Both the position numbers and the translations under genes were made by a program. The notes below the pieces were generated by a model. That model was not told the DNA's origin and searched no databases. It worked only from the letters and a program-made list of their open reading frames with translations. From the IMG/VR virus record IMGVR_UViG_3300045988_064633, positions 16,129 to 80,128 of that record: a DNA stretch of 64,000 nucleotides. One strand, 5' to 3'. The DNA comes from a virus. Below are positions 3,772-58,196 of this stretch, piece after piece (the first letter of the stretch is position 1; every line of letters starts with the position of its first letter).

Positions 3772-3871
3772 TTGTGTGGATTTTCAGCGTATTTGTACCG
3801 GCAATCCACAAGCCGACTGTTTCTTACATCTCGGACAGCTTCCTCATATCCAATATTTACAGATTGGATAA

Positions 3872-14996: not shown

Positions 14997-15072
14997 GACT
15001 ATTCCTCCTTTGTGTAGAAATGTGCCGCACATATCATGTTACGACACATTTTACACTACAATATTTTTGCGG

Positions 15073-30813: not shown

Positions 30814-31160
30814 ACTTCATCATCCTCCGGGAATCTAAACACAATGTTTGCCGGTTCGAATTTCATATCTGGGCTGTTAACCATTATTTTGATGATTCCA
30901 AAACCTCTTGCAGCCATTTTTATGCATTCCTCGTAATCGTCATCGCTCATTTCAACGTTTTGCGCAAGAAACATTCCTGCATACACTTTATGCAACGCTT
31001 TCATAGCTTTTTTGGCTTTTTCTTTTGTCAAATAACGAGCCATAACTGTTCCCTTTTCACCTACCATCGGCACGTATGCTCTTATGATATTTCCGGTTCT
31101 ACTTAATGAAGTGATTTCATAAGGAACGTCAATTTCTCCATTCTGACTAATTAATCTCAT
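30810..31160 (-). CDS. Hypothetical protein, paralog of 22694..22927
   Basis: See the 22694 entry; 4-nt overlap with the RT stop. Confidence 0.5.
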   Translation of the reverse strand: MRLISQNGEIDVPYEITSLSRTGNIIRAYVPMVGEKGTVMARYLTKEKAKKAMKALHKVYAGMFLAQNVEMSDDDYEECIKMAARGFGIIKIMVNSPDMKFEPANIVFRFPEDDEV

Positions 31161-32176
31161 TTTATCCTCCTTTTAATTTCCGAATCCATACTATGGCATA
31201 ATTTGATACAATTTCCATGAAGCATATGATTTTGGCATGCTCCGTATTTTTCATGGAATTTTTCTATCGACATCTTCCCGTCATTCACTACCCGTACCCA
31301 TCTTCGGATTTTTCTCTGTGTTTTTCTTTTCTTATCACCACGCAATTTTCTGATATATTTTCCTTCATCAGTCACGTAATGGTGAAAGCCCAGATAACAC
31401 AATCCCATGCGAAATGGTACAATTTGTGATTTAGGGTTTAGCTCCAATCCAAGGCTTTCAATCATCATTCGGATTGCTTCAAGAATTTCTCTGGCATCTT
31501 CTTTCGTTTTACAAATCACATAAAAATCATCGTTGTATCGTCCGTAATATGGATTTCCAAATTCAATCGTTATCATCTGATCCAGTGAATGTAAAAGCAA
31601 CAATGCGTACTTTTGATTTACCTGATTTCCTAATGGAAGCCCGGGATTACCTGTACTGTCAATAAACAAATGGTTCAACCAGACTGTAAAATCATCATCA
31701 AAGTAATAATCCAAAACATCTTTCATGATTTCATGGTCTATGCAATAAAAGTATTTGTGAATATCACATTTTACAATCCAACTATTCATTCCATTTCTTT
31801 TATAGAAATCCAACATTTGATTTCTTAACCCGTCCATTGCCATGTGTTGTCCTTTTCCTTGCTGTCCGGCAGTGTTCCATTTAATCAGGATATTTTCAAG
31901 TTTCGGTGTCAGAATGTAATCAGAAAAGCATCTCTGCACTACTTTGTCCTTAAATGCACATGATTCTATCGTGCGCTCTTTTGGCTCATGAATTTGAAAT
32001 TTATTATACGGATTTATGGTATACGTTTGGCTTTCCAATTGTTCCTTCAAGAGATGAATGCCTTCAAGAGACAAATTAGAAAATCTTGCAGTACCTGAAT
32101 TAAATTTCTTACCGCTCTTAACCTTCTTGTAAGAACGATATAAATTTTCAAAATTTGTAACAATTTCTTTTTCCAT
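31157..32176 (-). CDS. Diversity-generating retroelement (DGR) reverse transcriptase
   Basis: RT motifs CDIHKYFYCIDH, LPLGNQVNQ (DGR-type GNxxxQ block), YNDD; immediately downstream of a TR with A-specific mismatches to two VRs. Confidence 0.9.
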   Translation of the reverse strand: MEKEIVTNFENLYRSYKKVKSGKKFNSGTARFSNLSLEGIHLLKEQLESQTYTINPYNKFQIHEPKERTIESCAFKDKVVQRCFSDYILTPKLENILIKWNTAGQQGKGQHMAMDGLRNQMLDFYKRNGMNSWIVKCDIHKYFYCIDHEIMKDVLDYYFDDDFTVWLNHLFIDSTGNPGLPLGNQVNQKYALLLLHSLDQMITIEFGNPYYGRYNDDFYVICKTKEDAREILEAIRMMIESLGLELNPKSQIVPFRMGLCYLGFHHYVTDEGKYIRKLRGDKKRKTQRKIRRWVRVVNDGKMSIEKFHEKYGACQNHMLHGNCIKLCHSMDSEIKRRIK

Positions 32177-32269: not shown

Positions 32270-32347
32270 GTGATGCAGGTTGGGCGAACACCATTTTCGT
32301 TGTTGTAATTGTTGTTGTTGATATTGCCCGAAGGGGAAACAATAGTA
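32270..32347 (-). repeat. DGR template repeat (TR)
   Basis: The 67-bp core 32281-32347 matches 32791-32857 and 33393-33459. In frame it encodes SPSGNINNNNYNNENGVRP (AAC-rich). Confidence 0.85.
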
Positions 32348-32371
32348 TTCGCAGTGCATAACCTGTGAAAA

Positions 32372-32746
32372 TTATCTTTTCCTGTCTTTTGTTCTCCATG
32401 AAATAGTCATATACTTTATATCTTTTACCATTTGCGACCATGCTTCCATTCCACCGGAATTGATAATTCCTAATTCATATGAAAGTTCTATAAAGTACAT
32501 CAACTCATCACAATGAGTAATGGCTTTTGTTTGAAGTTCTAATCGTTCTCTTTTATAATCTTTCAGATCAGTTCGGTTGGCTTCAAATAGTGACTCATAA
32601 ATTTCCAATGCTTTATTTTGCATTTTATCTACAAGTGAAAACCTGTATTTCTTCGGGTATCGTCTGGCATTACTCGTAACTATTAATGTATGCTTTGCAA
32701 GTTGCTTGGATTTTGCTATTACCTTTAAATCTTCATTCGCCATCAA
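32372..32746 (-). CDS. avd: DGR accessory variability determinant (Avd, four-helix-bundle protein)
   Basis: 124-aa basic helical protein in the canonical target-avd-TR-RT order; resembles four-helix-bundle / 23S-IVS family proteins. Confidence 0.8.
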   Translation of the reverse strand: MMANEDLKVIAKSKQLAKHTLIVTSNARRYPKKYRFSLVDKMQNKALEIYESLFEANRTDLKDYKRERLELQTKAITHCDELMYFIELSYELGIINSGGMEAWSQMVKDIKYMTISWRTKDRKR

Positions 32747-33348
32747 TCATCATTTCCTGATTCAAAGATTGAAGAAGAAAAGATGCAAACTGGGCGAACA
32801 CCATTTCCGCCGCCGTAATTGCGGCTGCCGAAATTGCCCGAAGGGGAAACAATAGTAATTGTTGTACTGTAATCATTTGCTGGTGTACTCCATGGAGTAA
32901 GCAGCCACCACCATTTATCCATATTTGGAAGGATTTTTCTGTATTTTCGGTATTCATCCACCGTCAAAATCGAAATCTTATCTTTACAATGTGCATATTC
33001 TGTCTGACCGTCCATAGAAAGTAAATCTCGATCAAACTCAATAACTGCATCTTCTCCAAGCTCGTCCGTAATTTTTTTAAGAAAACGAGTGTTTAACTCA
33101 TTTCTCAGTTTACTTGAAATCCAGTTATTTGAAGCTGAATCAAATGTTCTTTCTTTTCCATCAAATCCATTCAAAATGGCAAAATATCCTTTTTCTGTCT
33201 TATCCAGAATCAGCCATTCCATACCAGCAAGTTCAATAGCTTTTCCGATTTCCGGCTTTCCGATGTGCTTTTTCTTGAATTCTGCGAACTCTTTACTTAA
33301 TCTGGATAATTCATCCTCAAAATATTTCAGATTTTTCTTCATAATCAT
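32743..33348 (-). CDS. DGR variable target protein 1 (C-type-lectin-like VR tail)
   Basis: C-terminus WWWLLTPWS...IVSPSGNFGSRNYGGGNGVRPVC carries VR1 48 nt before the stop. Confidence 0.85.
   Translation of the reverse strand: MIMKKNLKYFEDELSRLSKEFAEFKKKHIGKPEIGKAIELAGMEWLILDKTEKGYFAILNGFDGKERTFDSASNNWISSKLRNELNTRFLKKITDELGEDAVIEFDRDLLSMDGQTEYAHCKDKISILTVDEYRKYRKILPNMDKWWWLLTPWSTPANDYSTTITIVSPSGNFGSRNYGGGNGVRPVCIFSSSIFESGNDD
32791..32857 (-). repeat. DGR variable repeat VR1
   Basis: 11 differences from TR, all at TR plus-strand T (coding-strand A). Confidence 0.85.
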
Positions 33349-33950
33349 TCCTCCACCTTAGATACAAAGATATTAGATTTTAAGATACAAACTGGGCGAA
33401 CACCACTTCCGACGTCGTAAAGGTCGCCGCAGATACTGCCCGAAGGGGAAACAATAGCAATACTTTTTTTCCATCCACGTTCTTCCGTTGACCATGGCGA
33501 TAATGTCCAATACCAGTCGTTCAGATCATTGTTCGGTGTAATATCTGTGTATTCTCGTGCTTCATCAAATGTAATTGGACGGATTTTACAATCAACAGTC
33601 CCCAATTTCTGTCCATCCGCAGTGATAATATCTGCTGTGTGTGTTTCGACATTTTCTGCCCCGAATTCTTCTTCGAAGTCTTTCAGAATTTCAGTGTCAC
33701 ACAGTTTCTTTACGTTTGATGTTTTGTAATCTGAGGTATCACCAAACTCTACATTTTCTTTCACCAGATCAAGCGAAATAATTTTTGTTGTATCTCCATA
33801 CTGTTCCAGAACCTTGTATTTACGCTTTCCAGTGGTCTGAAATACTTCTCCTCGTTTCAGCGTTGACAACTCAACCTTTCCGGTTTCTTCCTGCTTTTCC
33901 AGAAGTTCAACCAGTTCCTTTGCTTTCTGTAAAATTTCTTTATTGTTCAT
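33345..33950 (-). CDS. DGR variable target protein 2 (paralog of target 1)
   Basis: C-terminus WYWTLSPWS...IVSPSGSICGDLYDVGSGVRPVC carries VR2 48 nt before the stop; start after GGAGGC. Confidence 0.85.
   Translation of the reverse strand: MNNKEILQKAKELVELLEKQEETGKVELSTLKRGEVFQTTGKRKYKVLEQYGDTTKIISLDLVKENVEFGDTSDYKTSNVKKLCDTEILKDFEEEFGAENVETHTADIITADGQKLGTVDCKIRPITFDEAREYTDITPNNDLNDWYWTLSPWSTEERGWKKSIAIVSPSGSICGDLYDVGSGVRPVCILKSNIFVSKVEE
33393..33459 (-). repeat. DGR variable repeat VR2
   Basis: 14 differences from TR, all at TR plus-strand T (coding-strand A). Confidence 0.85.
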
Positions 33951-34341
33951 TCCCGTTGCCTCCAAAAAATATTTCTCGCATATCTACTGCTGCGTACTTC
34001 TTATGCATAAGTTTCTTGTTTTTGATTGCCCCGTTCGGATTGTTGCAGACAAAATCTCTGCATATCTCAGGTCTCACTGGATAAATGAGACATTTTTCTT
34101 TTTCTTTGGAATCATCCAGGAACGGGCAAGTAAGGTCAAAAGCTACAACCGAAGGATAATTATGTTTCTGCTCAGTGATATGATGCTTCTTTACGTAACG
34201 TTTGATTTCTTTAATTTCTTTACTGGATATTGGCAAGTAGTTGCTACAACATTGTCCGCAACCACTGCATTTACCGTCCTTTGTGAATTCAAATACTCCA
34301 CATTTCATATCCTTCATGACTTCTTCTAACGTCCCGATCAT
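33940..34341 (-). CDS. YkgJ-family Cys-cluster (zinc/iron-chelating) protein
   Basis: CSGCGQCC ... CPFL ... C ... VRPEICRDFVC pattern. Confidence 0.65.
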   Translation of the reverse strand: MIGTLEEVMKDMKCGVFEFTKDGKCSGCGQCCSNYLPISSKEIKEIKRYVKKHHITEQKHNYPSVVAFDLTCPFLDDSKEKEKCLIYPVRPEICRDFVCNNPNGAIKNKKLMHKKYAAVDMREIFFGGNGNEQ

Positions 34342-34345
34342 GCTA

Positions 34346-34507
34346 TCACCTCGTAAGTTGAACAAGAATGTTCATAACAAGTGATACTGCCGAGGCTATG
34401 AACAATGGTCGGGTCTTATCCTTTGCGACCGCATAAATTATTGCGCCTAACAATGGTAAGAATGAGATATAAAGCAATGACTCAAACACTGAATGAATTA
34501 TTGACAT
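34346..34507 (-). CDS. 53-aa two-helix membrane peptide
   Basis: MSIIHSVFESLLYISFLPLLGAIIYAVAKDKTRPLFIASAVSLVMNILVQLTR; untracked ORF filling the gap. Confidence 0.35.
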   Translation of the reverse strand: MSIIHSVFESLLYISFLPLLGAIIYAVAKDKTRPLFIASAVSLVMNILVQLTR

Positions 34508-34510
34508 ATC

Positions 34511-35611
34511 TTATTCCTCCTGTTTCATAAAATCTGGAATCTCTGGTTCTTTACCTGCTGCCGGAACTGGTTCCTTCTCAGCTGGCTGTACGGCTTCTGC
34601 AACTGTTGGCTGTTTTGGCTGTTCTTCGATTGCCATTGGTTCTGGAATGAATTCCTCTTTATTGGCATTCTGTTCGATCTCTTCCTGTACTTCCCTGTAT
34701 GTAGCGTCCATCGTGTTATATTCATATGCCTGTACCGGATTATCCCATTTCTTAGGAATAGACTTCATAATGTTGTTACGCATTTTACGAACAATCATAG
34801 ATTCTCTCGACTGCGTTTCGTAATAAGACGGTGAAATATATGGTCTTAATTCCTCACAATCAATAATTGCTTCCAGTTCCCCAATATCAGCAACCTTTTT
34901 CATGATTTCTTTTTTCTTTGCTTCAATCTGAGTTTTCTGTGCATCTGTAGCTTTGTATCTGTCTGCACAAATACCGAATGTTTCATTCTGAAGATTGTTC
35001 TTAATATGTGCTGCAAGATTCTTCAGTACGTCTGCTCTTTCGCATGAAAGGTATTCAACGTGACCATCTTTGTACTGAATTGGATATACCACGCGAATAA
35101 CTTTTCCAATTCCAGATTCTTCCCATTCCGGCGGTGTGATTTCTACACCTCTGTGTCTTGGTGGGATATACTTGTCACCCTCTCTTACTTTCCAATATGG
35201 AAATACTTTAGCCACATTGACACCATATCTACTTACAAGAGCATCGTTTCCGTCGCCCTCAATCGCAAATTCGATTTTCTTCTCCCACTGAGGTTTCTGC
35301 CCTTTTGCCGCTATGTTTACGTTTCTGATCTGGAAATAACATTCTCTCGGCTGTGCATTTGCGTTCAGCTTTAATGCTGCGACTTTACTCAGGATAAATT
35401 TAAGATTAGAACCGTTGATTGCTTCAAAACTCACACCGCTTTCATGTACCATCTGGAAAATAGATCCCATTGCTGCTACTACACAATCTTTTGAATATGA
35501 ATCAAATTCCATTCCTCTTGAAGTCAAATCTCTTTCCATTAAATCGACATACCGATTTGTGTAGTAGGAAAGCTGTGTGTTAAAATTTGCTACCTGTGTG
35601 TTTTCTGCCAT
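34511..35611 (-). CDS. Putative RecT-like single-strand annealing protein
   Basis: Position among SSB/ATPase genes, and ECYFQIRN ... IEFAIEGDGNDALVSRYG resembles the RecT core; acidic/Pro-rich tail. Confidence 0.45.
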   Translation of the reverse strand: MAENTQVANFNTQLSYYTNRYVDLMERDLTSRGMEFDSYSKDCVVAAMGSIFQMVHESGVSFEAINGSNLKFILSKVAALKLNANAQPRECYFQIRNVNIAAKGQKPQWEKKIEFAIEGDGNDALVSRYGVNVAKVFPYWKVREGDKYIPPRHRGVEITPPEWEESGIGKVIRVVYPIQYKDGHVEYLSCERADVLKNLAAHIKNNLQNETFGICADRYKATDAQKTQIEAKKKEIMKKVADIGELEAIIDCEELRPYISPSYYETQSRESMIVRKMRNNIMKSIPKKWDNPVQAYEYNTMDATYREVQEEIEQNANKEEFIPEPMAIEEQPKQPTVAEAVQPAEKEPVPAAGKEPEIPDFMKQEE

Positions 35612-36053
35612 TTTAATTCTCCTTTTCTTTTATTAATTAACTCATTTTTTGTTTGCATTTCTGTTCAGTTCTGCACTTCGCCAAAGCAAATCATAACCGA
35701 GCTACGCTCTGCCTATCCTTTGCTCATCTTCTCTACTCAGCACCATTGCTATACTTTACTTTTCTATTCCGTGCTTCGCCTATACGTATCTTTGCCCTGC
35801 CCTACTTCGCCAATGCGTTACATTTCTTTACAACACATTGCTCTGCTGCGCTTTTCCGCTACCTCACTATGCGAAACCTCTCTTTACTTTGCCAAAACGT
35901 ATCAACTCTTTTCAATTCCATAACTTTGCCCTTCTGCACCTCTCAGTACCACTCCGATACATTACTTTGCTACGCTTCGCCGAAGCAAATCATTACCCAG
36001 CAATTCTGCGCCTTTGCTTTGCCTATCATAACTACATTCAGCCATGCCGTAGC
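35612..36053. repeat. ORF-free block of degenerate same-orientation CTTYGCC repeats (block A)
   Basis: CTTCGCC at 35676, 35774, 35805, 35975; CTTTGCC at 35790, 35887, 35924, 36017. The 26-nt copies 35676-35701 and 35975-36000 match 23/26. The plus strand is pyrimidine-rich. Confidence 0.5.
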
Positions 36054-36650: not shown

Positions 36651-36952
36651 CTCGTATTCCTCCGATTTTTATATTTTGCTTAATGCTTTGCTTGTCACAG
36701 CCGTGCGTTTCCGTTGCTGTTCTTTGCCTCTCAGAGCCGTGCCGTTGCATCTCAAATCAGTGCTTAGCTATGCCTTTGCTTTACTCGGCTATTCTATTCT
36801 CAACGTTTCCATTGCATTTCATTTCTTCACGCTGCAGTTCAGTGCCTGTCTATTCCGTGGCATTTCATATCTGTTCTATGCATATCCCTTGCTTCGCTTC
36901 TCATTGCTTCGCTTTGCCGTTGCAAAGCTAACTATGCTAATCCTATTGCGTT
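36651..36952. repeat. ORF-free block of related degenerate repeats (block B)
   Basis: CTTTGCC at 36722 and 36912; GCTTCGCTTC at 36891. Repeated ttccattgcatttcat / ttccgtggcatttcat and agccgtgc..ccgttgc units. Shares vocabulary with block A. Confidence 0.5.
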
Positions 36953-41795: not shown

Positions 41796-42043
41796 TCACT
41801 TTCGATTTCATTGAACATTGTTTCCAGGTGGTATTCATCTTTCAAATCGCTGTTTGCATAATCGATGGATTTCACTTGGAAACAGATGTTTGCACCGCTT
41901 TGAGTGTTGAACACTTTCACATATTTCTTTCCATTTCTCGCAAAGCACATTACCCGCGTGTTATCCGGAATTCTTACAATCTGCGGTGCGAATAATCTTT
42001 TTAAAAATTGCTTTAGCACATTTATGGCTCCTTTCTCAATCAC
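41768..42043 (-). CDS. Hypothetical protein
   Basis: 91-aa ORF. Confidence 0.45.
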   Translation of the reverse strand: MIEKGAINVLKQFLKRLFAPQIVRIPDNTRVMCFARNGKKYVKVFNTQSGANICFQVKSIDYANSDLKDEYHLETMFNEIESDQSVTILNQ

Positions 42044-42797
42044 CGTCTGCTTTTTCAGTTTCCTGTCCCAGAAACTTATTCACGAAATACAACTGTCCCT
42101 TTCCGCTAACTTTTGTCGTGCGTGTGATTCTTACTGAACCATCTGGATTCTGAACGTTAGATTCTTTGATTTCAAATAATCCCTGCTCAACGTATTTCTG
42201 TTTTGGCATATTTCGTGAACTTCCAGAAACCATCAGATAGCCATTGTCTCTCATCCACTGGAACAATCGTTTCTGTCCTATCTGGTATCCGTTCTGACAG
42301 ATAAGTTTTGCCAAGTCACCGATAAGAATTGATGTATGACTTGCGGATACAGCATCTGCGAAAATTGTTTTCGGTCTATCAGCTTCAATTTTCTCCGCAA
42401 GAGACTTATTTGTATCTTTCAACTTCGCAATCGTCTGGTCTGCCATCTTCAATGCTCTGGCAAAAACCTGTTCTGGTGTGTTCCATGCTTTTTCGAGGTC
42501 GATGAGATACTGTCGGCATTCTTTTCCTTTTTCAGTTCTACTCATAAGGCAAATGTGTTTTGCCATATCTACTGATAATGAATAGTCTTGTATTTCCTGT
42601 TCGCCGCCGTGTTGGTTGCCCTGTACCTTTAGGTACGCCCCTCTGTAATCCTCATTTTCAATAAATCCCTGAGAGTTTGTCTCAAACCATGCTGAAAATC
42701 TCTTACTGATTTCAAGAGATTTATGTAGTTCTCTAGCTGACACTGTCGGTTGCTCGCCATCATAATTGATTGTCATTAACTGTTCCGTGGTTATCAC
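42036..42797 (-). CDS. Phage antirepressor (AntA/ANT N-terminal plus KilAC C-terminal domain)
   Basis: VSARELHKSLEISKRFSAWFETN... and C-terminal TSILIGDLAKLICQNGYQIGQKRLFQWMRDNGYL. Confidence 0.8.
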   Translation of the reverse strand: MITTEQLMTINYDGEQPTVSARELHKSLEISKRFSAWFETNSQGFIENEDYRGAYLKVQGNQHGGEQEIQDYSLSVDMAKHICLMSRTEKGKECRQYLIDLEKAWNTPEQVFARALKMADQTIAKLKDTNKSLAEKIEADRPKTIFADAVSASHTSILIGDLAKLICQNGYQIGQKRLFQWMRDNGYLMVSGSSRNMPKQKYVEQGLFEIKESNVQNPDGSVRITRTTKVSGKGQLYFVNKFLGQETEKADGD

Positions 42798-43003: not shown

Positions 43004-43032
43004 ATAATAGCACATCCTCAACGCATTGTCAA
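43004..43032 (-). promoter_or_regulatory. Leftward early promoter TTGACA-17-TATTAT
   Basis: Minus strand: TTGACA (43032-43027), 17 nt, TATTAT (43009-43004). Confidence 0.6.
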
Positions 43033-43049
43033 CGTATTTTTTATTTTTT

Positions 43050-43066
43050 ATGCGTTGACAACGCAT
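43050..43066. promoter_or_regulatory. 17-bp palindromic operator ATGCGTTGaCAACGCAT
   Basis: Perfect palindrome overlapping the rightward -35; half-site CAACGCAT recurs at 43019-43026 and CAACGTA at 43030-43036 over the leftward promoter. Confidence 0.5.
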
Positions 43067-43083
43067 TTAGTAAATGTTATACT
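43055..43083 (+). promoter_or_regulatory. Rightward repressor promoter TTGACA-17-TATACT
   Basis: ttgaca 43055-43060, 17-nt spacer, tatact 43078-43083. Confidence 0.65.
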
Positions 43084-43116
43084 TTAGTCATACCTTAAGG
43101 AAAGGAGGTGTGCAAA

Positions 43117-43470
43117 ATGGAAGAACGTTTGAAAATATTGCGTAAACATTTGGGACTTTCAAGAGAAGACTTCGCCAAAAAGCTCGGTTTGAAAAGCCGT
43201 GGAAAAATTGAAAATATAGAACTTGGAAGAACAACTCCAGATGACGACTTCTTAAAGCTAATTTGTAATACTTATAATGTTTCTTATGGTTGGCTCGTGA
43301 ATGGAAACGGCGAAATGTTCCAAGACGATGGCGATGCGCAGGCTATCGTTGATTCGGTAATGACCGGGGATAATGAATTTGCTAAGAAGATTCTTGTAAA
43401 GTTCGCAAAGCTCAGCGATGAACATTGGAAGCAACTCCAAGAAATCCTAACAGAATTGGAAAACAATTAA
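43117..43470 (+). CDS. CI-like XRE-family repressor
   Basis: LKILRKHLGLSREDFAKKLGLKSRGKIENIELGRTTP HTH; divergent from the early operon; GGAAAGGAGGTG RBS. Confidence 0.8.
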   Translation: MEERLKILRKHLGLSREDFAKKLGLKSRGKIENIELGRTTPDDDFLKLICNTYNVSYGWLVNGNGEMFQDDGDAQAIVDSVMTGDNEFAKKILVKFAKLSDEHWKQLQEILTELENN

Positions 43471-43579: not shown

Positions 43580-44221
43580 ATGAAGAAAAAGCTATTAATT
43601 GCATTTTGTATTTTTGCAGTTTTAGGAGTTTCTACTCCAACTTATGCAGGCGGCGTGACTGGTGTTGAAGTTCAAAAGGATGATTCTGAAAAGTACGGTG
43701 TAATCAGTGATTTTGATTATGATATAGAGGGAAACTCTGTGAAATTGCACGGTTATGATGGCAAGTGCAAAATTTTGGAAATTCTTCCATCATACAATAT
43801 TGACGGAACAGACTACGCAACAGATTTATCAGATTTCCAGATCGGAATTGGAAGTTCTCATGTTGAATCAGTTATTTTTCAAGAAGGAATTACTGAAATA
43901 TATGATGCTGTTTTTAATTCCTGTGATGTTCAAAAAGTATTTTTTCCTAAAAGTATGATAAACGTAACAGATAAAACCTTATCTTACTTAAATCCTAAAG
44001 AAGATGGCGATCTCATCCAGATTTACTATGCAGGCACACAAGACGACTGGGGAAACATTTTTACAGAATATAAAAGAACAAAAGTTGAAGATGCTGAATT
44101 CGGAGAGGAATTAGGAACATCTATTGCGGACAAAATAAATTCAATGTTAGGCAGCGATTATGACAGTTCCGAATTCGAATATTATTTCTCCGCATCGCCA
44201 GATGATTTAAAAACAGAATAA
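43580..44221 (+). CDS. Secreted leucine-rich-repeat (BspA-type) protein
   Basis: Signal peptide MKKKLLIAFCIFAVLGVSTPTYAGG; repeats like ESVIFQEGITEIYDAVFNSCDVQKVFFPKSM. Confidence 0.6.
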   Translation: MKKKLLIAFCIFAVLGVSTPTYAGGVTGVEVQKDDSEKYGVISDFDYDIEGNSVKLHGYDGKCKILEILPSYNIDGTDYATDLSDFQIGIGSSHVESVIFQEGITEIYDAVFNSCDVQKVFFPKSMINVTDKTLSYLNPKEDGDLIQIYYAGTQDDWGNIFTEYKRTKVEDAEFGEELGTSIADKINSMLGSDYDSSEFEYYFSASPDDLKTE

Positions 44222-44226
44222 TTATT

Positions 44227-44262
44227 ATGCCGCATCTGCTTTAACTGTAGATGCGGCATTTT
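44227..44262. terminator. Bidirectional hairpin terminator
   Basis: 11-bp stem ATGCCGCATCT/AGATGCGGCAT followed by TTTT. Confidence 0.65.
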
Positions 44263-44265
44263 AGG

Positions 44266-44373
44266 CTACTTTTCTCTTAAATATAAGTATACCAGCAACT
44301 TGTACACTCTTTTTAAAGTACTTTCTAATTTTACCTTATCTAATAATTCAATAATCTCTTTCTTATAATCCAT
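44266..44373 (-). CDS. 35-aa peptide
   Basis: MDYKKEIIELLDKVKLESTLKRVYKLLVYLYLREK after CAGGGAGGG. Confidence 0.35.
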   Translation of the reverse strand: MDYKKEIIELLDKVKLESTLKRVYKLLVYLYLREK

Positions 44374-44464
44374 AAATAACCCTCCCTGTTTGAAAACTAC
44401 CGCCTACATTAAAGCATATTCCCGGTCAGTGGGAAATATGTTCCGAACTTATGTTTGCATTATG

Positions 44465-44794
44465 TTATATAGTGCGTCCAATTAAACGGGATCCATTCAA
44501 ATTTCCCCTTGCCAGTTGCCAGCGATAAACTGGAATATTTGTGATTTCAAATATGACCTTTACTTTCGCGAATATAAAGTTCGTTTTTACCGGATTTTCT
44601 GTGTTTTCTACAATATCGTTCGTTCTTAGAACCTCTTTTATGCTTTGGTTTAAGGTTGAATGCTTGCACATATGCTCTGCCAAGCGGATGGAGCTTTTAC
44701 GCAAATAATCTTGATTGCACATCGGCAAGTGAATGATGTAGCTTGCAAAGAAGATTACTCCTACTGCGATCAGCAATCTCTCAATCTTCCTCAT
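44465..44794 (-). CDS. Membrane-anchored hypothetical protein
   Basis: N-terminal TM LLIAVGVIFFASYIIHL. Confidence 0.45.
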   Translation of the reverse strand: MRKIERLLIAVGVIFFASYIIHLPMCNQDYLRKSSIRLAEHMCKHSTLNQSIKEVLRTNDIVENTENPVKTNFIFAKVKVIFEITNIPVYRWQLARGNLNGSRLIGRTI

Positions 44795-44982
44795 AATATA
44801 TACCTCTTTAGTCTATAATTTATGTACTTAGTTATACCACTTTTTGTGCAAATTAATCGGGCAAAACGATAAAACTGCATTTTTAATGGATAAAAATATG
44901 AAAAATATTTCGGTTTTGACTATGATATTGTTGAATCTTGAGGTATAATATATGCAAATTTTACCAAGGAGGAAATATTTTT

Positions 44983-45810
44983 ATGAGAAAGAAAGTAAAG
45001 TTTCTAGCTAGTATTGGGCTTTCAAGCATTTTGCTTGCATCCATGCCATCCAATGTTTTTGCGGAAGATTTTGTGCTATACGAAGAGAACGGCATTCATG
45101 TTGAAACAAAAGGATTAACCGATTCCCCGTCCACAGGCACTATAGGACTGTATATCGAAAACAATTCTAATTTGAATTTAGGCATAGCTCCTTATGCTTA
45201 TGCCATAAACGGTATTATGGCAGGCGGCGATCAGTATGGCATAAACTCCTCTGATGTAGCACCCGGAAAGAAAGCGAATTCTACTTTGGAGCTGATAGAT
45301 ACATGGGAAAATAAAGATTTCTTCAAAGACTACCAGATGAACGAAGTAGATAGCTTTGACGTTCTCTTGTGGGCTTACGACAATGCAAAGAGCTTCAAGG
45401 CTTTTGACAGCGGTCAGATTCACGCTGACGTAACTGGAACTACTGTGGTTTCTTCTCCTGTATTTGACGGTGCACAGAACTTGTATAACCAGAACGGCAT
45501 TAGTGTCGATTTCATTTCCTCAGAGGGTAACAGCTTCACATTTTGTATCACAAACACTACTGGACAGTATTTCGCATACGATGTAACTTCTGAGACTTAT
45601 AACGATTTTACAATGTCAGATAGTTATGAAATATTCAATCAGTATTTATTAGATGGTTGCAAAACTCTTGTGACCCTAACTCCTACAGATGATTTTCTTA
45701 CAGCAAACGGAATTTCCGATGTGTCAAACGTAGATTTCGCATTAACGATTCGTCCATTAGCAGAATATGATAACGAATATACTACGGACTTAATTTCATA
45801 TCAAAAATAA
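44983..45810 (+). CDS. Secreted hypothetical protein
   Basis: AAGGAGGAAA RBS, signal peptide MRKKVKFLASIGLSSILLASMPSNVFAED. Confidence 0.6.
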   Translation: MRKKVKFLASIGLSSILLASMPSNVFAEDFVLYEENGIHVETKGLTDSPSTGTIGLYIENNSNLNLGIAPYAYAINGIMAGGDQYGINSSDVAPGKKANSTLELIDTWENKDFFKDYQMNEVDSFDVLLWAYDNAKSFKAFDSGQIHADVTGTTVVSSPVFDGAQNLYNQNGISVDFISSEGNSFTFCITNTTGQYFAYDVTSETYNDFTMSDSYEIFNQYLLDGCKTLVTLTPTDDFLTANGISDVSNVDFALTIRPLAEYDNEYTTDLISYQK

Positions 45811-45826
45811 TTCATTGTAAAGCAAC

Positions 45827-45858
45827 GAGCCGAGGATTTTACTCCCCGGCTCTTTTTA
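45827..45858 (+). terminator. Rho-independent terminator
   Basis: GAGCCGAGG ... CCCCGGCTC then TTTTT. Confidence 0.65.
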
Positions 45859-46066
45859 TGGCAAAACCTGCATTCACGATCACATCTCCTCCCCAGAGTA
45901 ATCTGGCAGGCTGTACCAACGTATTAAGATGTCGATTTTTTTCGAACTTCTGCTGAACTATTTACACATTTCCGTTTCAGTGCTACTATATTACCATAAT
46001 TAATTGATTAGATGAGGATAATCTGATGAAAGTTGAAGCGTAGGCGATAAACGGAAGGTGATTACT

Positions 46067-46765
46067 ATGAAAATTGCTATTTGTGACGATTGTGAACTAC
46101 AGGTTGAGTATTTTAAGCATCGGATTGAACCGTTTTTGAAGCAAAACGGTGACCGGAATTATACGATAGACGGTTATTTCAGTGGGGAACCCTTGATAGA
46201 TGATGTTAAGGACGGAAAATGGTTTGATATGATTGTCTTGGATGTAATACTTAAAAACGAAAATGGCGTGGATATTGCCAAAGAACTCCGAGAGTGTGGA
46301 TATAAGGGCAAAATTGCTTTCTGGACAGCTCACAAGGATTTTGTTTTTGATGCGTTGGATGTTGAATTTACGCATTATATCATCAAGGGAAATGAACACG
46401 GAAGAATGTTTTCTATGATTGACAATACCTTGAGTGATATGAAACACAAGATGCTCACAATCAGACACAGAGATTGCATTATAAGGATTCCATTGAACAA
46501 AATCGAGTACCTCGAAGCACGGGATAAGCAAGTTTTTGTTCATTGCACGAACGGGATTATGCACAGTATGTATGCAACTTTAAAGTCGGTTGAGCCTTAC
46601 CTTGATAAACGGTTTTTGCGTTGCCATAAGTCATTTGTTGTAAACATGGATTATGTGCAAAAGCTGGATTCTGATTTTACGATGTTTTCTGGTGATAAAG
46701 TACTGATTCGTAAGAACGGATATGCGGATATTAAAAATCAATATTGGGAATATATTATTAAATAA
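46067..46765 (+). CDS. LytR/AlgR-family response regulator (receiver plus LytTR DNA-binding domain), no kinase nearby
   Basis: Receiver MKIAICDDC...DMIVLDV...; LytTR part IPLNKIEYLEARDKQVFVHCTNG...LRCHKSFVVN. Confidence 0.85.
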   Translation: MKIAICDDCELQVEYFKHRIEPFLKQNGDRNYTIDGYFSGEPLIDDVKDGKWFDMIVLDVILKNENGVDIAKELRECGYKGKIAFWTAHKDFVFDALDVEFTHYIIKGNEHGRMFSMIDNTLSDMKHKMLTIRHRDCIIRIPLNKIEYLEARDKQVFVHCTNGIMHSMYATLKSVEPYLDKRFLRCHKSFVVNMDYVQKLDSDFTMFSGDKVLIRKNGYADIKNQYWEYIIK

Positions 46766-46875: not shown

Positions 46876-48324
46876 TTACACTTTGCAAATGTATTTTGCA
46901 GAAACAAATCCAAAATACTTTCCGGCAATGCGGATATAGTACCAGTCGGCTTTGTCTTTTGCTTTAATGGTATCACATACATCAACTAAATTACCTTTTG
47001 CAAGTGTAGGATAGCTTTTAAGCTGTGCATTTTCCGTTCCAGCCCATTTGCGAACTTTGAGTTTTGTTGCTGTTACTTTGCCAACCCACTTCGGAGTCTT
47101 GGAAGGTGTGGTTGTTGTAGTTGGTTTGCTTGATGTATTAGTTGATGGTTTTGCGGTAGGCTTACTTCCAGTAGTATTGGTAAGTCCACTAAAATCAATC
47201 CCTTTTCCAGTAAATCTAAGACGATGTGTCCATCCGTGAGAATACAGATACCAGTTCTGCACTCTGATTTCATTACCAGAATTATCTTTTGTATCCGTTG
47301 TTCCCTCAGAACTTCTGGCATGGACAATTCTATTGCTGTCTACTGCCAAGGCTGTATGATGAGTTGAATTAAGTTCAATATCTCCTCTGATCATCTTTGC
47401 ATGTGCAGTCTGGTTTTTGGCTACAATCTCGAATCCTGCATTCTGCATCTTCAGCATGTTGCCTGTATAACTGCAATTCTCTTTAAGATAACGAGCTTGT
47501 TTGATCAGCCCATTTTTCATAAAAGCATAATAGAATGCAGTACATGCCAAACTTGAACAGTCAAAAGATTTCGGCTTGTCAATCTCATACAAACTGCGGA
47601 TTCTCTGGCTATATCCATGTGAATTGTCGTTTGCGATGCGAACTGCAAAATCAACTGCGTCATTCCGGATATTCTGAATAATCTGTTCTTTTGTTTTTGC
47701 CATTGTTGTTTCTCCCTTCTGGTCAGTGCCTTTATAATCTTTGTAGAACACATCTCTATCTACATTTCCGTTGATTCCAGGAATCTTGGCCTTGGAGCTG
47801 TACTGCCATCCTACACCAATATCGGGACGCAGACGTTCTTGCAACCATCCATTGTCGTTACCTGGATATCTCGCAATCCAGAACTCATACTTCTTTAAGT
47901 GGCTACAAATCACATTCATGTACCAGTCAAGATTGCAATAGATCGCAAATTTGTAACCAGCAGCAACAATGATCTCCCGGAACGCCTCTGCCAGATTATG
48001 AATGCTCTCTGCTCCAAGTACTCTCTGTTTATGGTGTTCCAAATCCAGGAATACTGGAAACTGAATCTTTCTTCCGTTCAATACAGATACAACCTTTCTG
48101 GCTTCGCTCTGGGCTTCAGATACTGTCAAAGCATAGGAATACTTGTATACTCCTACTGGAATTTTGTGCTTGTTGCAACCGGCAAAGTTATTCTTAAACT
48201 GAGAATCAATCACGTTTCCAACTTCTGTAATACGCAAGATTGCAAAGTCTATGCCGTAGTTTACTACAGTATCCCAATTAATCTTTCCTTGGTGAGCGGA
48301 TACGTCAATACCTTTAATCTCCAT
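46876..48324 (-). CDS. Endolysin: GH25 muramidase plus Cys-peptidase/amidase-like domain plus SH3b
   Basis: GIDVSAHQGKINW...DLEH (GH25); FDCSSLACTAFYY...THHTALAV (CHAP/NlpC-like); C-terminal KVRKWAGTENAQ...WYYIRIAGKYFGFVSAKYI (SH3). Confidence 0.9.
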   Translation of the reverse strand: MEIKGIDVSAHQGKINWDTVVNYGIDFAILRITEVGNVIDSQFKNNFAGCNKHKIPVGVYKYSYALTVSEAQSEARKVVSVLNGRKIQFPVFLDLEHHKQRVLGAESIHNLAEAFREIIVAAGYKFAIYCNLDWYMNVICSHLKKYEFWIARYPGNDNGWLQERLRPDIGVGWQYSSKAKIPGINGNVDRDVFYKDYKGTDQKGETTMAKTKEQIIQNIRNDAVDFAVRIANDNSHGYSQRIRSLYEIDKPKSFDCSSLACTAFYYAFMKNGLIKQARYLKENCSYTGNMLKMQNAGFEIVAKNQTAHAKMIRGDIELNSTHHTALAVDSNRIVHARSSEGTTDTKDNSGNEIRVQNWYLYSHGWTHRLRFTGKGIDFSGLTNTTGSKPTAKPSTNTSSKPTTTTTPSKTPKWVGKVTATKLKVRKWAGTENAQLKSYPTLAKGNLVDVCDTIKAKDKADWYYIRIAGKYFGFVSAKYICKV

Positions 48325-48335
48325 ATTTTCTCCTT

Positions 48336-48576
48336 TCACACCACATATCTGTGGTGACTATATCTCAATGATTCTTGCGATACCTTCGCATAAATCATAG
48401 TCGTGTCTAATTTTTCATGTCCTAACATCTTTTGCAATTCCGTAACATCCATACCACGATCAAGAGACATTGTGGCTGTGGTATGCCGGATAAGATGAGG
48501 ATACAGCTGTCTTACAAGATTTGCTCTCTCGCTTATCTGGTTCACAATCTGCTCGATCTGAGCCTTTTTTATTCCT
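48336..48576 (-). pseudogene. C-terminal remnant of a tyrosine recombinase
   Basis: Encodes ...YPHLIRHTTATMSL...MLGHEKLDTTMIYAKV (HxxR and H...Y boxes) with no N-terminal two-thirds. Upstream frames hold stop-riddled integrase-like pieces (LWHANGNRIRQVIAL). Confidence 0.7.
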
Positions 48577-49845: not shown

Positions 49846-50178
49846 TCAGCATATTTTATGTCCACTGAAACATTGCTTTACAAGCTCTGCCGTCAGCTGA
49901 CTCAGATTCAGCAATGAGCTGTACTCGATGTTCTCTGATTCTGCCGTATATCCTCTCGGAACGAGCTTTCCAGCAATCTCGTGCCCTGATATCAGAAACA
50001 GTACAGTGGCGGTATAAGCTGTCAAGCCACCACTACTTTCTGCATAGATTTCTATGACATACTGTCCATCTCTATTGGCAGGGACTATTGCGTCCCAGAT
50101 TTCGAGATCCGATCCCTCTCGTCTCTGGAACTCAATAGCGAACTCATTACACGAGCCGTAAACCCTCGTAATCATCAT
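49846..50178 (-). CDS. Hypothetical tail-module protein
   Basis: 110-aa ORF. Confidence 0.5.
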   Translation of the reverse strand: MMITRVYGSCNEFAIEFQRREGSDLEIWDAIVPANRDGQYVIEIYAESSGGLTAYTATVLFLISGHEIAGKLVPRGYTAESENIEYSSLLNLSQLTAELVKQCFSGHKIC

Positions 50179-51071
50179 TCATCAGTTACTGTGACAGAGA
50201 TCACATAAGTTTTGCCTGCATCGACCGGATTAGGCGTTACACTTGCAGCTGTGATCTTCGGCGGGTTCGGGTCATACTTGACAGTTCTGGTAATGGTTGT
50301 TGTCTTACCGGCACTGTCTTTCGCAACGATATTAATTGTATTTGTTCCTGCGGACAATGTGACCGTAGTGCTGAATGCTCCGTTGCTACCAACCGTTACA
50401 GATGCACCGTTGACCGTTACCGTAACAGGAGATGAGGTTGCATCATTGGTTGTACCTGCTACAGTAATTGTGCTCTTGTTGGTAACGTATCCATCAGACG
50501 GAGAGGCTACGCTCAACGTCGGCGGTACGGTATCGATCTTGAATGTTACAGATTTCTGCGTAGCTGCGTTGCCATCGTAATCGGATGCATCAAACCTAAT
50601 GGTATGAGAACCATCGGTAAGAGCTGTTGCCGGTATGTACGAACAATTGTAACCACCGGTTACGGCGGTCTTTGTAATGCCGTCAGTAATCTTGCTTCCG
50701 GAATCGATTGTGATACCGATAGTAGACGGATTAACACCAGAATCATCATCTGTAACAGTCCATGTGATAGTTGGCTTGTTGTTGACAAGTGTTGCAGATG
50801 CTGTTGGATTTGTGACTGTAATTACCGGAGCGACCTTTTCTTTAACGGTTAATCGCAGGGAACTACCGATTGCGGAATCTGTTGCATCTTTGGTGGTCAC
50901 GTTTCCAGCATCGTCCGTTGCCTTGATTGTTATTCCGTAATAATGTCCGCTCTGGCTGTAACTGGACTTATTTGGAGCTGTTACTGTAGCTTCATATTTT
51001 CCCGTATTACTGTTAAAAGTAAGGGTGTAAGCTTGTCCATTTACAATAGCTTGTACTTGCTTTACTGACAT
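50175..51071 (-). CDS. Ig-like-domain repeat protein (tail or fibre decoration)
   Basis: Repeated T/V/S-rich beta modules, e.g. PVITVTNPTASATL...TWTVTDDDSG, PPTLSVASPSDGYV... Confidence 0.65.
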   Translation of the reverse strand: MSVKQVQAIVNGQAYTLTFNSNTGKYEATVTAPNKSSYSQSGHYYGITIKATDDAGNVTTKDATDSAIGSSLRLTVKEKVAPVITVTNPTASATLVNNKPTITWTVTDDDSGVNPSTIGITIDSGSKITDGITKTAVTGGYNCSYIPATALTDGSHTIRFDASDYDGNAATQKSVTFKIDTVPPTLSVASPSDGYVTNKSTITVAGTTNDATSSPVTVTVNGASVTVGSNGAFSTTVTLSAGTNTINIVAKDSAGKTTTITRTVKYDPNPPKITAASVTPNPVDAGKTYVISVTVTDE

Positions 51072-51708: not shown

Positions 51709-54700
51709 TTAATTCTCCTTTTCTATATTGAACTTTTCATAGAGCTGATTAATTAGTTTCTCCTGTCGGTCAAGCTGTTCTTTCTGGCTTTTTATCATTG
51801 CAAACATAGCAGGTATCATGATACGTTCGTTCCAGTTCTCAGCTTTGCCGTCTATGTGGTCAACTGCCAGAGGAAAATACATATCCACATCTTCTGCTAT
51901 GAACATTGGAAATTCTGCGTCTGCGCGTTCATCTCCTTTTGCAAGGTAGCCTTCTTTATACCGTGCCATTATCGGTTCGATGTTGTACAGATTCTCAATA
52001 AATTCTTCTGGCAACGAAGCTCCGAGGATTTTGTAGCGTTTGGAGGAAGATGAACTCATGTATACTAGATTGTTGTAAATCCTTAAATAATTTCCAGATG
52101 AAAGTGTGTCTAAATTGAAAATCTGAAATTTATCCGTTCCATCGGAAAAAGGTTCTGTTCCGCAAATTATGTTAAAGCCCCCATCGGCAACAAGACCATT
52201 TCCATAAGCACTCAAGGTGACCCCATTAATGCTTATTTCTTCATTTTCTGCGTCCAGTATTATAATGCCGTTAGGAGACTTTAATTGTCCTGTCTCACTA
52301 TCTAGAACCCACCCGGCAATATTTCCAGTGTTAGCACTTAATTCACCAGTAAAAGTTCCTTTTGCTGAATTCAAACTGCCGGAAAACGTTCCTTTTGTAA
52401 AATTCACTCCTGTGTTGTCAATATATCCAACTTGATTACCGGCTGAATCTCTAATAACTAATTTTCCATTGCCATTATTTACACCGCCCAATGTCAATTC
52501 ACCGCCAAGCGCTGCACTGAAGCTGATATACAGTTGACCATTCTTGTAGTACAGGCCTTTCCATGCACCATCATTTGATAGTATTTCTACGATTTGCGAT
52601 TGTGTCAGATTGTCCACATCAATTACTACCGCAACACTCTGCATATCCATCAATGTTGTAGTTCCACCGGACGCATATAATTTACATCTAACATTTGTCA
52701 CATCTCTCGGAATACCGACAGTTGAACCATTAGAACTTGCTACTGTCTGACCAGATCCATTTGTCAAAATAGAATACAAATAGTGTGTCACGGTATCCTC
52801 ATCGGTTGAACTAGTATAAATGGTATTCCAAGTGTTTCCGTCAGCAGTCTCTTCAACAACGAATCTGCCTTTATAAGGCACTCTAGTAGCTGACTTTCCG
52901 TCACGATAATACGCTTTAAATGTTATAAAGTTTGGACTAATTGTCTTGTCAGAGCCACGTTTCAAGACGTTACATGATGGCTCAACCATGTATGTTCTAC
53001 CAGGTTCACCATCTTTTCCATCTTCTCCCTTTTTCTGCTTAGAAATCGTGAATCTTTTTGTTACTGACAGATTGCTGAGATATGTTGCTCTGATGTCTAT
53101 CCATCCATTGTCTGCCGATAGCCCAGTAACATTGTAGATATGTGTTGCATCACTCCAAGAGCCTGTGATACTGTCGGATTTTGTGATTGTATAACTACAA
53201 TCGTCTGTAATATCCGATGAGCCATACATTACAGTAGCTTTGGTAGATACCTGTGGAAATACTGCGATATTGCCATCTGCATCAGCCGTAATCGTCTGCA
53301 TTTCGTTTGATAGCTGCAAAGTCATGTTTTTGGCAAGAGCTGCTGTTTCAAGGGCTTTGTTTGCTGTGGTATCATCGGTATATTTATTCAGTTTCTTCCA
53401 ATCAGATGATGCATACACACTTCCTTTTGCTCTTGCTACAACACAAGTGAGGATATCTCCGCCGTCTTGAGACCATAAATCTCCGATATCATACGGCGGT
53501 GAAGGCTGTATAACAAACGTCCTTCTCTTGCCGTCTGCGGTATCTTGCGCTTTCTCAGCTTGTGCAAGTGCTTTGGAAATGTCGTTGTCTTGAATCATCT
53601 GCCATTTCCATGTTGCACCGTCCTGCATAAACCGATATGCGTAGCCAGTACTCTTCCAGTAAAAAAGATCGCCTTCATGTTTTTTACGTTCTTCTGTGCT
53701 TGTCCACTCAGAAGCCGGTTTGTTCTGCAAAGACGGTTCGTAATCATAAAAGAAGGACTCAATCTGTCCATCTATCTGTGCTTGTAAGCCGGAAAGCGAA
53801 TAGGTTACAGTATTTGCATAATCCGCAAGTTTACCATCCGAATATGCTTTGCTCTCTGCCAAGCTATCAGATATAGCTTTTGTAGCCGTCTTTCCACCAA
53901 TCTGTACATGATCTCCGCTGATGATTACTTTTTTAGTATCCATATCAACTTGGAAGATGATATTTCCACTCTTATCCTTTACGGTAATCGCACCTGTGTT
54001 AATCCAGTCAGCATTTAATCCTACGGCTGTGAGGATTCTTACAATCGTATCACCATCTACTGTCATACCACCATTCCATGTCTGTCCACCATCTGTAGAC
54101 ACTCCCCATGCCTCAGAAGTCATTTTCCAAATTGCCTGAGATTCTGCCAGAGTTGGTTTGTCGTGTAAATAAAAGATTTTGCTTCCATTTTCCTGTGGCT
54201 CAACAGTAGTATAAACTCCTGTGGCTGAATCAATTCTTTTTCCAAATTCTTCAAGAGCTTTTTCTCTCTCGGTTTTTTCCTGCTTAACCATATTTCTTGC
54301 AGTAACAAATGCCTGCGTCGCCTGGGAATATTGGGTGCTGCTATTTTTAGCAGCGCTTTTGGCATTACAAGCTATCTTCTGACCGGATCCCGGTTTCAAT
54401 GTAGTTGTGGTAAGTAGCGATGTGTATATTTTTCCATTTCTATCCACAATAATCAGTGAATCTCCGGCTTCCAGAGCCACATCTGTAGGGCACTCGGATT
54501 CAAATGGTCTAAATCTCATGCCAACGCATTTCTCGGCAATCATTGAAGCAATCGTATGGCCATCGCCAACACGAATTAATTTATTACCAGAAATTCCAAG
54601 TACATATCCCTCTGTACCAACCATGTAAGTTTGCGGATTATCAGAAGAGGATTCGCTGTATTCAGTTACTTTCACGCCTGTGATTACTACATCTGTATGA

Positions 54701-58167: not shown

Positions 58168-58196
58168 AGTATATCAAATTCTACCGCAAAAATCAA
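58168..58196 (-). promoter_or_regulatory. Candidate promoter TTGATT-17-TATACT for the cassette
   Basis: Minus strand TTGATT (58196-58191), 17 nt, TATACT (58173-58168); overlaps the tape-measure stop codon. Confidence 0.4.

Follow-up and report, generated by a model that had tools for sequence, protein, structure and literature searches.

Results

A diversity-generating retroelement with two small tandem targets

The stretch of viral DNA analysed here (64,000 nucleotides, positions 16,129 to 80,128 of IMG/VR record IMGVR_UViG_3300045988_064633, hereafter the window) carries on its minus strand a diversity-generating retroelement (DGR) composed of two small target genes (T2 and T1), a gene for the accessory protein Avd, a template repeat (TR) and a reverse transcriptase (RT) gene, in the order target-target-Avd-TR-RT (Table 1). 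The RT gene, in whose translation a YNDD motif is readable, lies 95 nt downstream of the TR. The start of Avd overlaps the stop of T1, and the protein also matches the NCBIfam model DivGenRetAVD with an E-value of 3.8e-10 and 40 bits, under the cutoff of 80, as well as PF05635 and PF22296, both weakly. A search of the DGR cassette against Rfam gave no match.

The repeat that defines the element is 76-79 nt long and occurs in three copies in the window, at 32272, 32782 and 33384. The copy located between Avd and RT is the template, and the copies at 32782 and 33384 are the variable repeats VR1 and VR2 of T1 and T2, respectively. Read in frame, the TR (codons AAT ACT ATT GTT TCC CCT TCG GGC AAT ATC AAC AAC AAC AAT TAC AAC AAC GAA AAT GGT GTT CGC CCA) gives the Asn-rich peptide N-T-I-V-S-P-S-G-N-I-N-N-N-N-Y-N-N-E-N-G-V-R-P-T-C-I, and its 3' end after CCA, ACCTGCATC, resembles IMH*, the TR form of the initiation of mutagenic homing (IMH) element. 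Against the TR core, all mismatches fall on TR adenines, both in VR1 (11/11) and in VR2 (13/13). Furthermore, 80 related IMG/VR loci were fetched, and in 89 TR/VR pairs from 47 related loci the A sites are mismatched in 924 cases out of 1765 (52%), versus 60 out of 3842 (1.6%) for the non-A sites. The AAY-rich character of the TR is conserved in these 47 loci, with its AAY codons intact at T1 identities down to ~63%, and so is the asymmetry between the IMH-like ends of the VRs, GTTTG[C/T]ATC, and the IMH*-like ends of the TRs, AC[C/A]TG[C/T/G]ATC. Chance repeats as the source of this TR/VR family are ruled out by an expectation of 0.00 and by the adenine bias in the 47 loci. The cassette is a canonical, naturally active DGR, and the reading of the locus in an earlier note, made from the letters alone, as a genuine DGR with two small tandem paralogous targets is borne out.

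Each VR ends 12-15 codons ahead of the stop of its gene. On the plus strand, the TR-identical block begins at 32791 in T1 and 33393 in T2, 48 nt above the last base of the respective stop codon (32743 and 33345), as the earlier note had it; these 48 nt correspond to 15 codons and the stop, counted after the Pro codon of the GVRP motif. The spacing between VR1 and VR2, 602 nt, equals the stop-to-stop spacing of the two genes. Adenine-specific mutagenic retrohoming from the single TR rewrites 11 consecutive codons (172-182) and one or two upstream codons in both targets, with directionality that would be set by the GC-rich block at the 3' end and by the IMH-like difference between VR and TR. The eight AAY, one ATC, one TAC and one GAA codons give, by arithmetic, a peptide space of more than 10^11 per target.

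No third VR was found in the 64-kb window when the conserved repeat ends were searched (chance expectation 0.00). In related contigs of 76-90 kb, the exact 17-mer of the VR 3' end was found, among the matches listed, only at sites ~600 nt apart, in a search of the viral collection that would miss a VR with a diverged IMH. A hidden third VR located in a tail gene was thus rejected for the window and, among the matches listed, for these contigs. Folds of 81 nt spanning each VR end are no better than those of shuffled sequences (z 0.04 and 1.69) and give no sign of a GC-rich hairpin of BPP-1 type past the VR, an enhancer hairpin or cruciform that is not universal among DGRs.

Table 1. Position of the DGR, its flanking genes and other mapped features of the window
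Feature	Coordinates	Strand	Properties
DGR reverse transcriptase	31157-32176	-	339 aa; PF00078 RVT_1 E 1.7e-12; phrog_1423 'reverse transcriptase' E 2e-86
Template repeat (TR)	~32272-32350	-	from repeat family, alignment and mismatch table; 22 nt past Avd stop
Avd accessory protein	32372-32746	-	122-124 aa; phrog_3206 'Avd protein of DGR' E 1.7e-23
Target 1 (T1)	32743-33348	-	201 aa from first ATG; PF19789 DUF6273 32.1 bits (cutoff 23.5); phrog_9958 E 1.4e-46, residues 25-201
VR1	32782-32860	-	hypervariable codons 32803-32835 = T1 residues 172-182; IMH-like 3' end GTTTGCATC
Target 2 (T2)	33345-33950	-	201 aa from ATG (206 aa from upstream TTG); phrog_9958 E 1.6e-24; DUF6273 19.6 bits, sub-cutoff
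VR2	33384-33462	-	hypervariable codons 33405-33437 = T2 residues 172-182; IMH-like 3' end GTTTGTATC
YkgJ-type CxxCxxCC protein	33940-34365	-	141 aa; PF03692 E 1.6e-11; phrog_32498 E 6e-55; neighbour, outside DGR
Hydrophobic peptide	34346-34507	-	53 aa; Kyte-Doolittle maxima 2.3 and 2.0
RecT-like single-stranded DNA annealing protein	34511-35611	-	upstream flank; phrog_2185 E 5.8e-119
Promoter-like site, TTGACA-17-TATTAT with TG	43004-43032	-	11/12 consensus match; best early leftward promoter candidate
Promoter-like site facing the helix-turn-helix (HTH) gene	43055-43083	+	11/12 consensus match; divergent from 43004-43032
HTH repressor-like gene	43108-43470	+	HTH_19/HTH_3 matches
Endolysin	46876-48339
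Ig-like/glucodextranase-B protein	50175-51071		298 aa; tail-associated
Tail protein	51709-55641		1310 aa; tail-associated
Tape measure	58193-63177	-	phrog_28918

Natural variation of the two targets

The cassette is very abundant, with thousands of natural variants in human gut metagenomes. Indeed, clustering of the metagenomic homologues at 90% identity yields 3159 clusters for T1 and 3081 for T2, the top ones being 86-96% identical to the proteins of the window. In 120 natural homologues, the column entropy is ~0 along T1 and T2 but rises above 3 bits in both at positions 172, 174-177 and 179-180, within a peak that covers residues 172-182 in either family. Across most related loci both VR peptides differ and the TR remains NINNNNYNNEN-like, and in almost all loci both paralogues keep an in-register VR devoid of stop codons. 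Three related loci (L004, L005 and L041) have identical VR2 and different VR1, which points to independent and ongoing turnover of the two repeats.

The targets are stand-alone members of the DUF6273 family

T1 and T2 are paralogues (39% identity over 127 aa, E 3e-27), and phrog_9958, a family of unknown function, spans nearly all of both. The third codon of T1, at 33342 (199 aa), is likelier to be its true start than the first ATG because it is preceded at 6 nt by GGAGGA and a length of 199 aa predominates among the homologues. The ATG of T2 at 33950 is preceded by GGAGG at 8 nt and falls within the last bases of the YkgJ-like gene, and the stop of T2 overlaps the first ATG of T1. Stops and starts thus overlap along the YkgJ-like gene, T2, T1 and Avd, an arrangement consistent with translational coupling.

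No signal peptide or transmembrane segment was detected in T1 or T2 by a Kyte-Doolittle scan, in line with the earlier note: the best 12-residue window in the first 40 residues scores 0.16 for T1 and 0.62 for T2, and the best 19-residue window anywhere 0.48 and 0.89, respectively. Likewise, none of 131 small family representatives has an N-terminal hydrophobic segment. Homology to tail or baseplate adaptors, which the earlier note had proposed to look for in the N-terminal domains, was absent from both targets in searches of Pfam, PHROGs and NCBIfam and in a PDB profile search, which returned DUF6273 and phrog_9958 only; there is in fact no separate N-terminal domain, the first ~28 residues forming a predicted helix in models that are of low confidence. 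Pfam gave no match to an Ig or FN3 domain in either target, and a weak match to phrog_10993 ('Hoc-like') is confined to the C-terminal part of DUF6273. The selected VR residues are, as judged by eye, rich in Tyr, Phe, Asp, Asn, Ser, Gly and Cys.

AlphaFold2 models of T1 reached a pLDDT of 39 on an alignment of T1 and T2, and a pLDDT of 51 with a pTM of 0.44 when families resembling those of nd4, nd12 and Toutatis (see below) were added by profile search. The second model, at this low confidence, found no match under E 0.07 when compared by Foldseek to the PDB and BFVD, and the scattered hits to NKR-P1 and DUF6273 were given no weight. A C-type-lectin-like fold is therefore putative for both targets, on the basis of the Pfam match and of the models published for homologues. 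Among solved structures, detectable homology is limited to the N-terminal DUF6273 domain of ThomasA (PDB 9qa6; profile E 8e-6).

The profile search of the DUF6273 family returned 5572 clusters at 50% identity with E <= 0.001, of which 504 with E <= 1e-30. The best 150 matches are mostly stand-alone proteins of 170-300 aa, and additional Pfam domains are rare in 147 representatives: DUF3310 (2), Ig-like (3), SufE, a Rep domain and a cell-wall hydrolase, with a tail-related domain in none of the 147. The small targets of nd12 type possess an N-terminal DUF3310 domain (E ~1e-16), whose characterised members are early intracellular phage proteins such as T7 gp1.7 and early cytotoxic mycobacteriophage proteins (PMC10700055) and the lactococcal phage protein SaV (PMC8306868). 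A metagenomic protein of 398 aa (P0250), an nd12-type target called as a fusion of a partial Dam methyltransferase to DUF3310 and DUF6273, probably results from a gene call that ran on out of the methyltransferase upstream; this single case was given no weight.

A near-core target pair with an accessory Avd-TR-RT module

Conservation of the locus was counted in relatives with enough flanking sequence, and a metallo-beta-lactamase (MBL) hydrolase gene was chosen as a second anchor to avoid ascertainment on T1. Around T1 (69 loci), the T2-T1 pair is present in 69, RT in 50 and the YkgJ-like gene in 20, the latter in 13 of the 50 loci with RT and 7 of the 19 without. Around the MBL hydrolase gene (68 loci), the corresponding figures are 63, 46 and 19, two of these 19 loci having no targets. 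On account of these counts, the T2-T1 pair can be called near-core for this group of phages, the Avd-TR-RT module is an accessory add-on directly downstream of it in ~70% of the relatives, and the YkgJ-like gene is unlinked cargo. The earlier note placed a YkgJ-type protein and a 53-aa membrane peptide immediately upstream of the targets, and both are indeed found there; the co-occurrence of YkgJ with this type of DGR, which it proposed to test, does not hold, since the gene occurs in a minority of loci, independently of RT, and also in the two without targets. The 53-aa peptide was seen in 9 of 69 loci, always with the YkgJ-like gene. No YkgJ-like gene was detected by tblastn in GenBank phages carrying homologous targets, and a megablast of the 6.2-kb region gave no match among GenBank phages.

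Early modules also house homologues of the targets in about seven distinct phage backbones. In the L077-type backbone, T2-T1-Avd-RT follow Sak, NinB, RusA and DnaD, and in the L032-type one T2-T1 come after a helicase and a methyltransferase. In FP_Brigit, gp06 is flanked by cI/cro-like regulators and exo/RecT; FP_Toutatis gp24 and Lelie orf58 are in the early region, and the small-target gene of Toutatis is core and 17.5 kb away from the TR (bioRxiv 10.1101/2024.10.15.618418). The nd4 cassette is upstream of SSB/DnaC, and the target of the nd12 type is found between an HTH gene and methyltransferase, VRR-NUC, HNH and TerL genes.

Several relatives depart from the arrangement of the window. 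In one locus (L025/L208; IMGVR_UViG_3300045988_092200), the window's RecT, MBL hydrolase and SSB recur with 100% identity, T1 and T2 are only 88-89% identical, and Avd and RT are missing; it seems that backbones identical in other respects exchange their target/DGR segment. A 53-kb contig (L093; IMGVR_UViG_3300045988_056330) has three VR-type sites at 617-nt spacing in 12246-13496, and apparently three tandem paralogous targets rather than two. In another locus (L029/L137; IMGVR_UViG_3300045988_060245), a tandem duplication reads T1-Avd-TR*-T1-Avd-TR-RT, where TR* has unmutated AAC codons and yet the VR-type IMH GTTTGTATC; TR* may be a product of TR/VR recombination or an assembly artefact.

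Genomic context of the cassette

The source of the window is a temperate tailed gut phage of ~78 kb that infects Lachnospiraceae (Blautia/'Ruminococcus' group). Related contigs measure 76-85 kb, host names attached to some homologues are Blautia obeum and 'uncultured Ruminococcus', and more distant relatives occur in metagenome-assembled genomes of Mediterraneibacter and Dorea. Upstream of Avd, the minus-strand array comprises genes for an anti-repressor, an SSB-like protein, an SbcC-like ATPase, RecT, the 53-aa peptide, the YkgJ-like protein, T2 and T1, and it continues with Avd, TR, RT, the MBL hydrolase, SSB, a methyltransferase, DnaD, DnaC and a serine integrase. This map agrees with the location between a RecT-like gene and the RT, in an early/recombination region, given by the earlier note. 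The two divergent promoter-like sites at 43004-43083 are the two best matches to the promoter consensus in 28-44 kb in a consensus scan, which found no minus-strand terminator-like site in this interval, so none between the promoter pair and T1. T1 and T2 are ~9 kb into the apparent early leftward operon, and 16-18 kb separate them from the nearest tail-associated genes, slightly more than the ~15 kb estimated earlier. PADLOC found no match to known defence families for T1, T2 and the small neighbours.

Other features of the window deserve mention. A 66-nt repeat occurs in three dispersed copies (35671-35736, 35970-36035 and 36732-36797; 61-74% identity) in the two non-coding gaps on either side of a 198-aa open reading frame (ORF), between RecT and the SbcC-like gene, and may function as iterons, as an origin or in internal regulation. 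Two different Ant-type anti-repressor genes are present (6443-7192 and 42036-42797, minus strand), and the serine integrase gene (13632-15032) is downstream of DnaD/DnaC and not beside the repressor. Four tRNA genes are clustered at 3510-4680 (minus strand). The block 43580-46765, between the lysis genes and the switch, contains a LytTR-type response regulator (46058-46765, plus strand) and a protein with a weak match to BspA-type leucine-rich repeats (43580-44221, plus strand), both possible lysogenic-conversion cargo. The tape measure is read as two ORFs of 524 and 1052 aa with a 251-nt gap, matching phrog_28918 positions 1-195 and 198-914, which could reflect a frameshift, an intron or a genuine split. 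Between the tape measure and the 1310-aa tail protein, the minus-strand segment 56875-58063 comprises a 373-aa DnaD-like/replication-initiator ORF, an unusual cargo for a tail module, directly preceded on its 5' side by an int-alpA RNA motif (RF02996, 52 bits).

Discussion

Small DGR targets made of DUF6273 alone and located away from tail genes have already been published (PMC10743442; bioRxiv 10.1101/2024.10.15.618418; PMC11792537), and a second, non-structural DGR target has been proposed in Quimbyvirus (PMC8008677), so that small non-tail targets are less novel than the earlier note implied. Indeed, nd4_tgt2 and nd12_tgt2 (PMC10743442), FP_Toutatis gp24 (bioRxiv 10.1101/2024.10.15.618418) and the 'small target' of Lelie and CP11 (PMC11792537) belong to the family of T1, with 28-32% identity over 86-89% of T1 (E 1e-19 to 2e-12). 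Like T1 and T2, they measure ~200-300 aa, carry the VR where DUF6273 ends on its C-terminal side, lack an export signal and are encoded off the tail genes. The differences reside in the number and nature of the targets: in the nd4, nd12, Toutatis and Lelie phages, the TR also diversifies a large Ig-like 'tentaclin', whereas none is present in the window nor, among the listed matches, in related near-complete contigs; the small target is single-copy in those phages and a conserved tandem pair directly upstream of Avd here. Furthermore, the predicted extra helix stands at the N-terminus of T1 and T2 but at the C-terminus in the Toutatis and Brigit types, and the nd12 types carry DUF3310 while T1 and T2 are formed of DUF6273 alone. 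What distinguishes the present element is a DGR with only small targets, in a conserved tandem pair, within a replication/recombination operon and with no Ig-like or tail target detected.

The element shares with the BPP-1 DGR (Mtd-Avd-TR-bRT) the order target-Avd-TR-RT, adenine-specific mutagenesis, an AAY-rich TR and a C-terminal VR with an IMH-like element. However, Mtd (381 aa) forms a trimer at the tip of the tail fibre, its lectin domain is preceded by a beta-prism and a beta-sandwich, and its gene adjoins the tail genes (PMC10743442), whereas T1 and T2 are two single-domain targets of 201 aa from an early operon, with no GC-rich hairpin past the VR. Quimbyvirus ORF84 is, like T1 and T2, a DGR target far from the structural module, which its authors read as part of a phage-host conflict (PMC8008677); this likeness is one of description, and ORF84 differs in that it belongs to a Bacteroides phage, lies in an opposite-strand defence/counter-defence island and shares its DGR with a structural target. 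ThomasA, an IgA protease of gut bacteria (PDB 9qa6; PMC12402451), is homologous over the C-terminal half of DUF6273 including the WWL...GVRP motifs; unlike T1 and T2, it is a secreted and cell-wall-anchored enzyme of 137 kDa and no DGR target. Finally, cyanobacterial and other cellular DGR targets with intracellular signalling or conflict domains (PMC7517822) provide a precedent for diversified lectin folds inside the cell, although they are large, multidomain and not phage-encoded, and showed no sequence relationship to T1 and T2.

We propose, with a rough probability of 0.5, that T1 and T2 are non-virion proteins, co-expressed with replication and recombination genes, that serve as variable binders of a polymorphic factor of the host or of a competitor inside the infected or induced cell. 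This proposal is based on the conserved position in early modules, the tight packing of the genes, the lack of a tail-attachment domain and the fusion to DUF3310; early-module synteny and the DUF3310 fusion, both read from sequence, lend indirect support to a non-virion role and to the intracellular binder on which the earlier note speculated. The place of the two genes among replication and recombination genes suggests a ligand other than a cell-surface receptor. The two proteins would be made early and would act in host takeover or counter-defence, and the DGR would let phage lineages track the polymorphic factor, with selection acting at the next infection, when a variant genome expresses its own variant protein. 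A bolder version, which we put forward tentatively, would have T1 and T2 as a DGR-diversified intracellular 'antibody-like' pair, made early in infection, that neutralises or hijacks some polymorphic component of the host such as a defence protein or a nuclease and so gives the phage an adaptive counter-defence repertoire, a role that the whole stand-alone DUF6273 family of phage early regions would share.

Several points weigh against an early intracellular binder. Gene position is only a proxy: the Ig-like tentaclin of nd4 is encoded in the same cassette beside SSB/DnaC, which indicates that DGR cassettes can land outside structural modules. The only experimentally characterised phage DGR target, Mtd of BPP-1, is receptor-binding, and a survey classed most phage targets as tail proteins (PMC8144416); those who described the homologues nd4_tgt2, nd12_tgt2 and Toutatis gp24 also guessed at a receptor-binding role (PMC10743442; bioRxiv 10.1101/2024.10.15.618418). 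The missing signal peptide, which the earlier note took as a pointer to an intracellular role, does not discriminate, since virion proteins such as Mtd also lack one, and it is neutral between the readings. The terminal amphipathic helix, which T1 and T2 have at the opposite end from the Toutatis and Brigit homologues (N- instead of C-terminal), could serve for docking or oligomerisation. In addition, the AlphaFold2 models of the targets are poor, the DUF3310-fused subfamily is only ~30% identical to T1, and the negative PADLOC result gives no support for a 'defence island' context similar to that of Quimbyvirus.

The main alternative is that T1 and T2 are virion-associated accessory receptor-binding or adhesion proteins, similar to Mtd and encoded outside the late operon, which would dock on tail fibres or the capsid via the terminal helix and whose DGR would broaden host range or adherence to mucus and glycans. 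The precedents of Mtd and of the tail proteins, the role proposed for the homologues, the absence of signal peptides, the nd4 tentaclin (a presumed surface protein) near replication genes and the residues selected in the VR, which by eye suit a binding surface, speak for such proteins; we nevertheless consider them less likely than non-virion binders, since the targets keep an early-module location in about seven backbones, overlap by stop and start codons with early neighbours and with Avd, and are separated from the early promoter candidate by no minus-strand terminator-like site. Moreover, a tail-attachment domain is absent from T1, T2 and the 147 representatives, in one subfamily the target is joined to DUF3310, a domain of early proteins, and the DGR leaves untargeted the phage's own large tail protein and Ig-like/carbohydrate-binding protein. 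Virion proteomics for small DUF6273 targets was not found in the literature searched.

Two further explanations retain less weight. T1 and T2 might be cytoplasmic products that leave the cell on lysis and work outside it, separately from the virion, coating debris or receptors of lysed cells to spare the progeny, or binding gut glycans. A domain described as lectin-like and devoid of export signal would fit this, as would the finding of a prophage DGR-target tentaclin in the secretome and in vesicles without particles (bioRxiv 10.64898/2026.05.08.723808), but placement in an early operon is of no obvious use to a product released by lysis, and a diffusing product is a shared good under weak selection on the encoding genome, which makes this explanation improbable. 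Hypervariation could also be non-adaptive, in which case a hitch-hiking DGR would diversify a loop that tolerates change, in a conserved early protein that works independently of its VR. That ~30% of the relatives keep T2-T1 without Avd and RT, and that the pair is conserved outside the VR, agree with such a DGR; we judge it very improbable in view of the intact AAY codons and IMH/IMH* asymmetry across the 47 loci, of the VR of both paralogues, in register and stop-free in almost all loci, and of the ongoing turnover seen in L004, L005 and L041, close relatives in which one VR is common and the other different.

What experiments have taught about phage DGRs comes largely from a single paradigm, tropism switching by the tail fibre of BPP-1. 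The role of T1 and T2 is a directly testable question because the system is small, two 600-bp genes with Avd-TR-RT, and present as prophages in Lachnospiraceae genomes, some of them annotated as Blautia obeum. If T1 and T2 are non-structural, targeted hypermutation in phages would extend from cell entry to actions inside the cell, and a function would be at hand for a large family of unannotated early phage genes.

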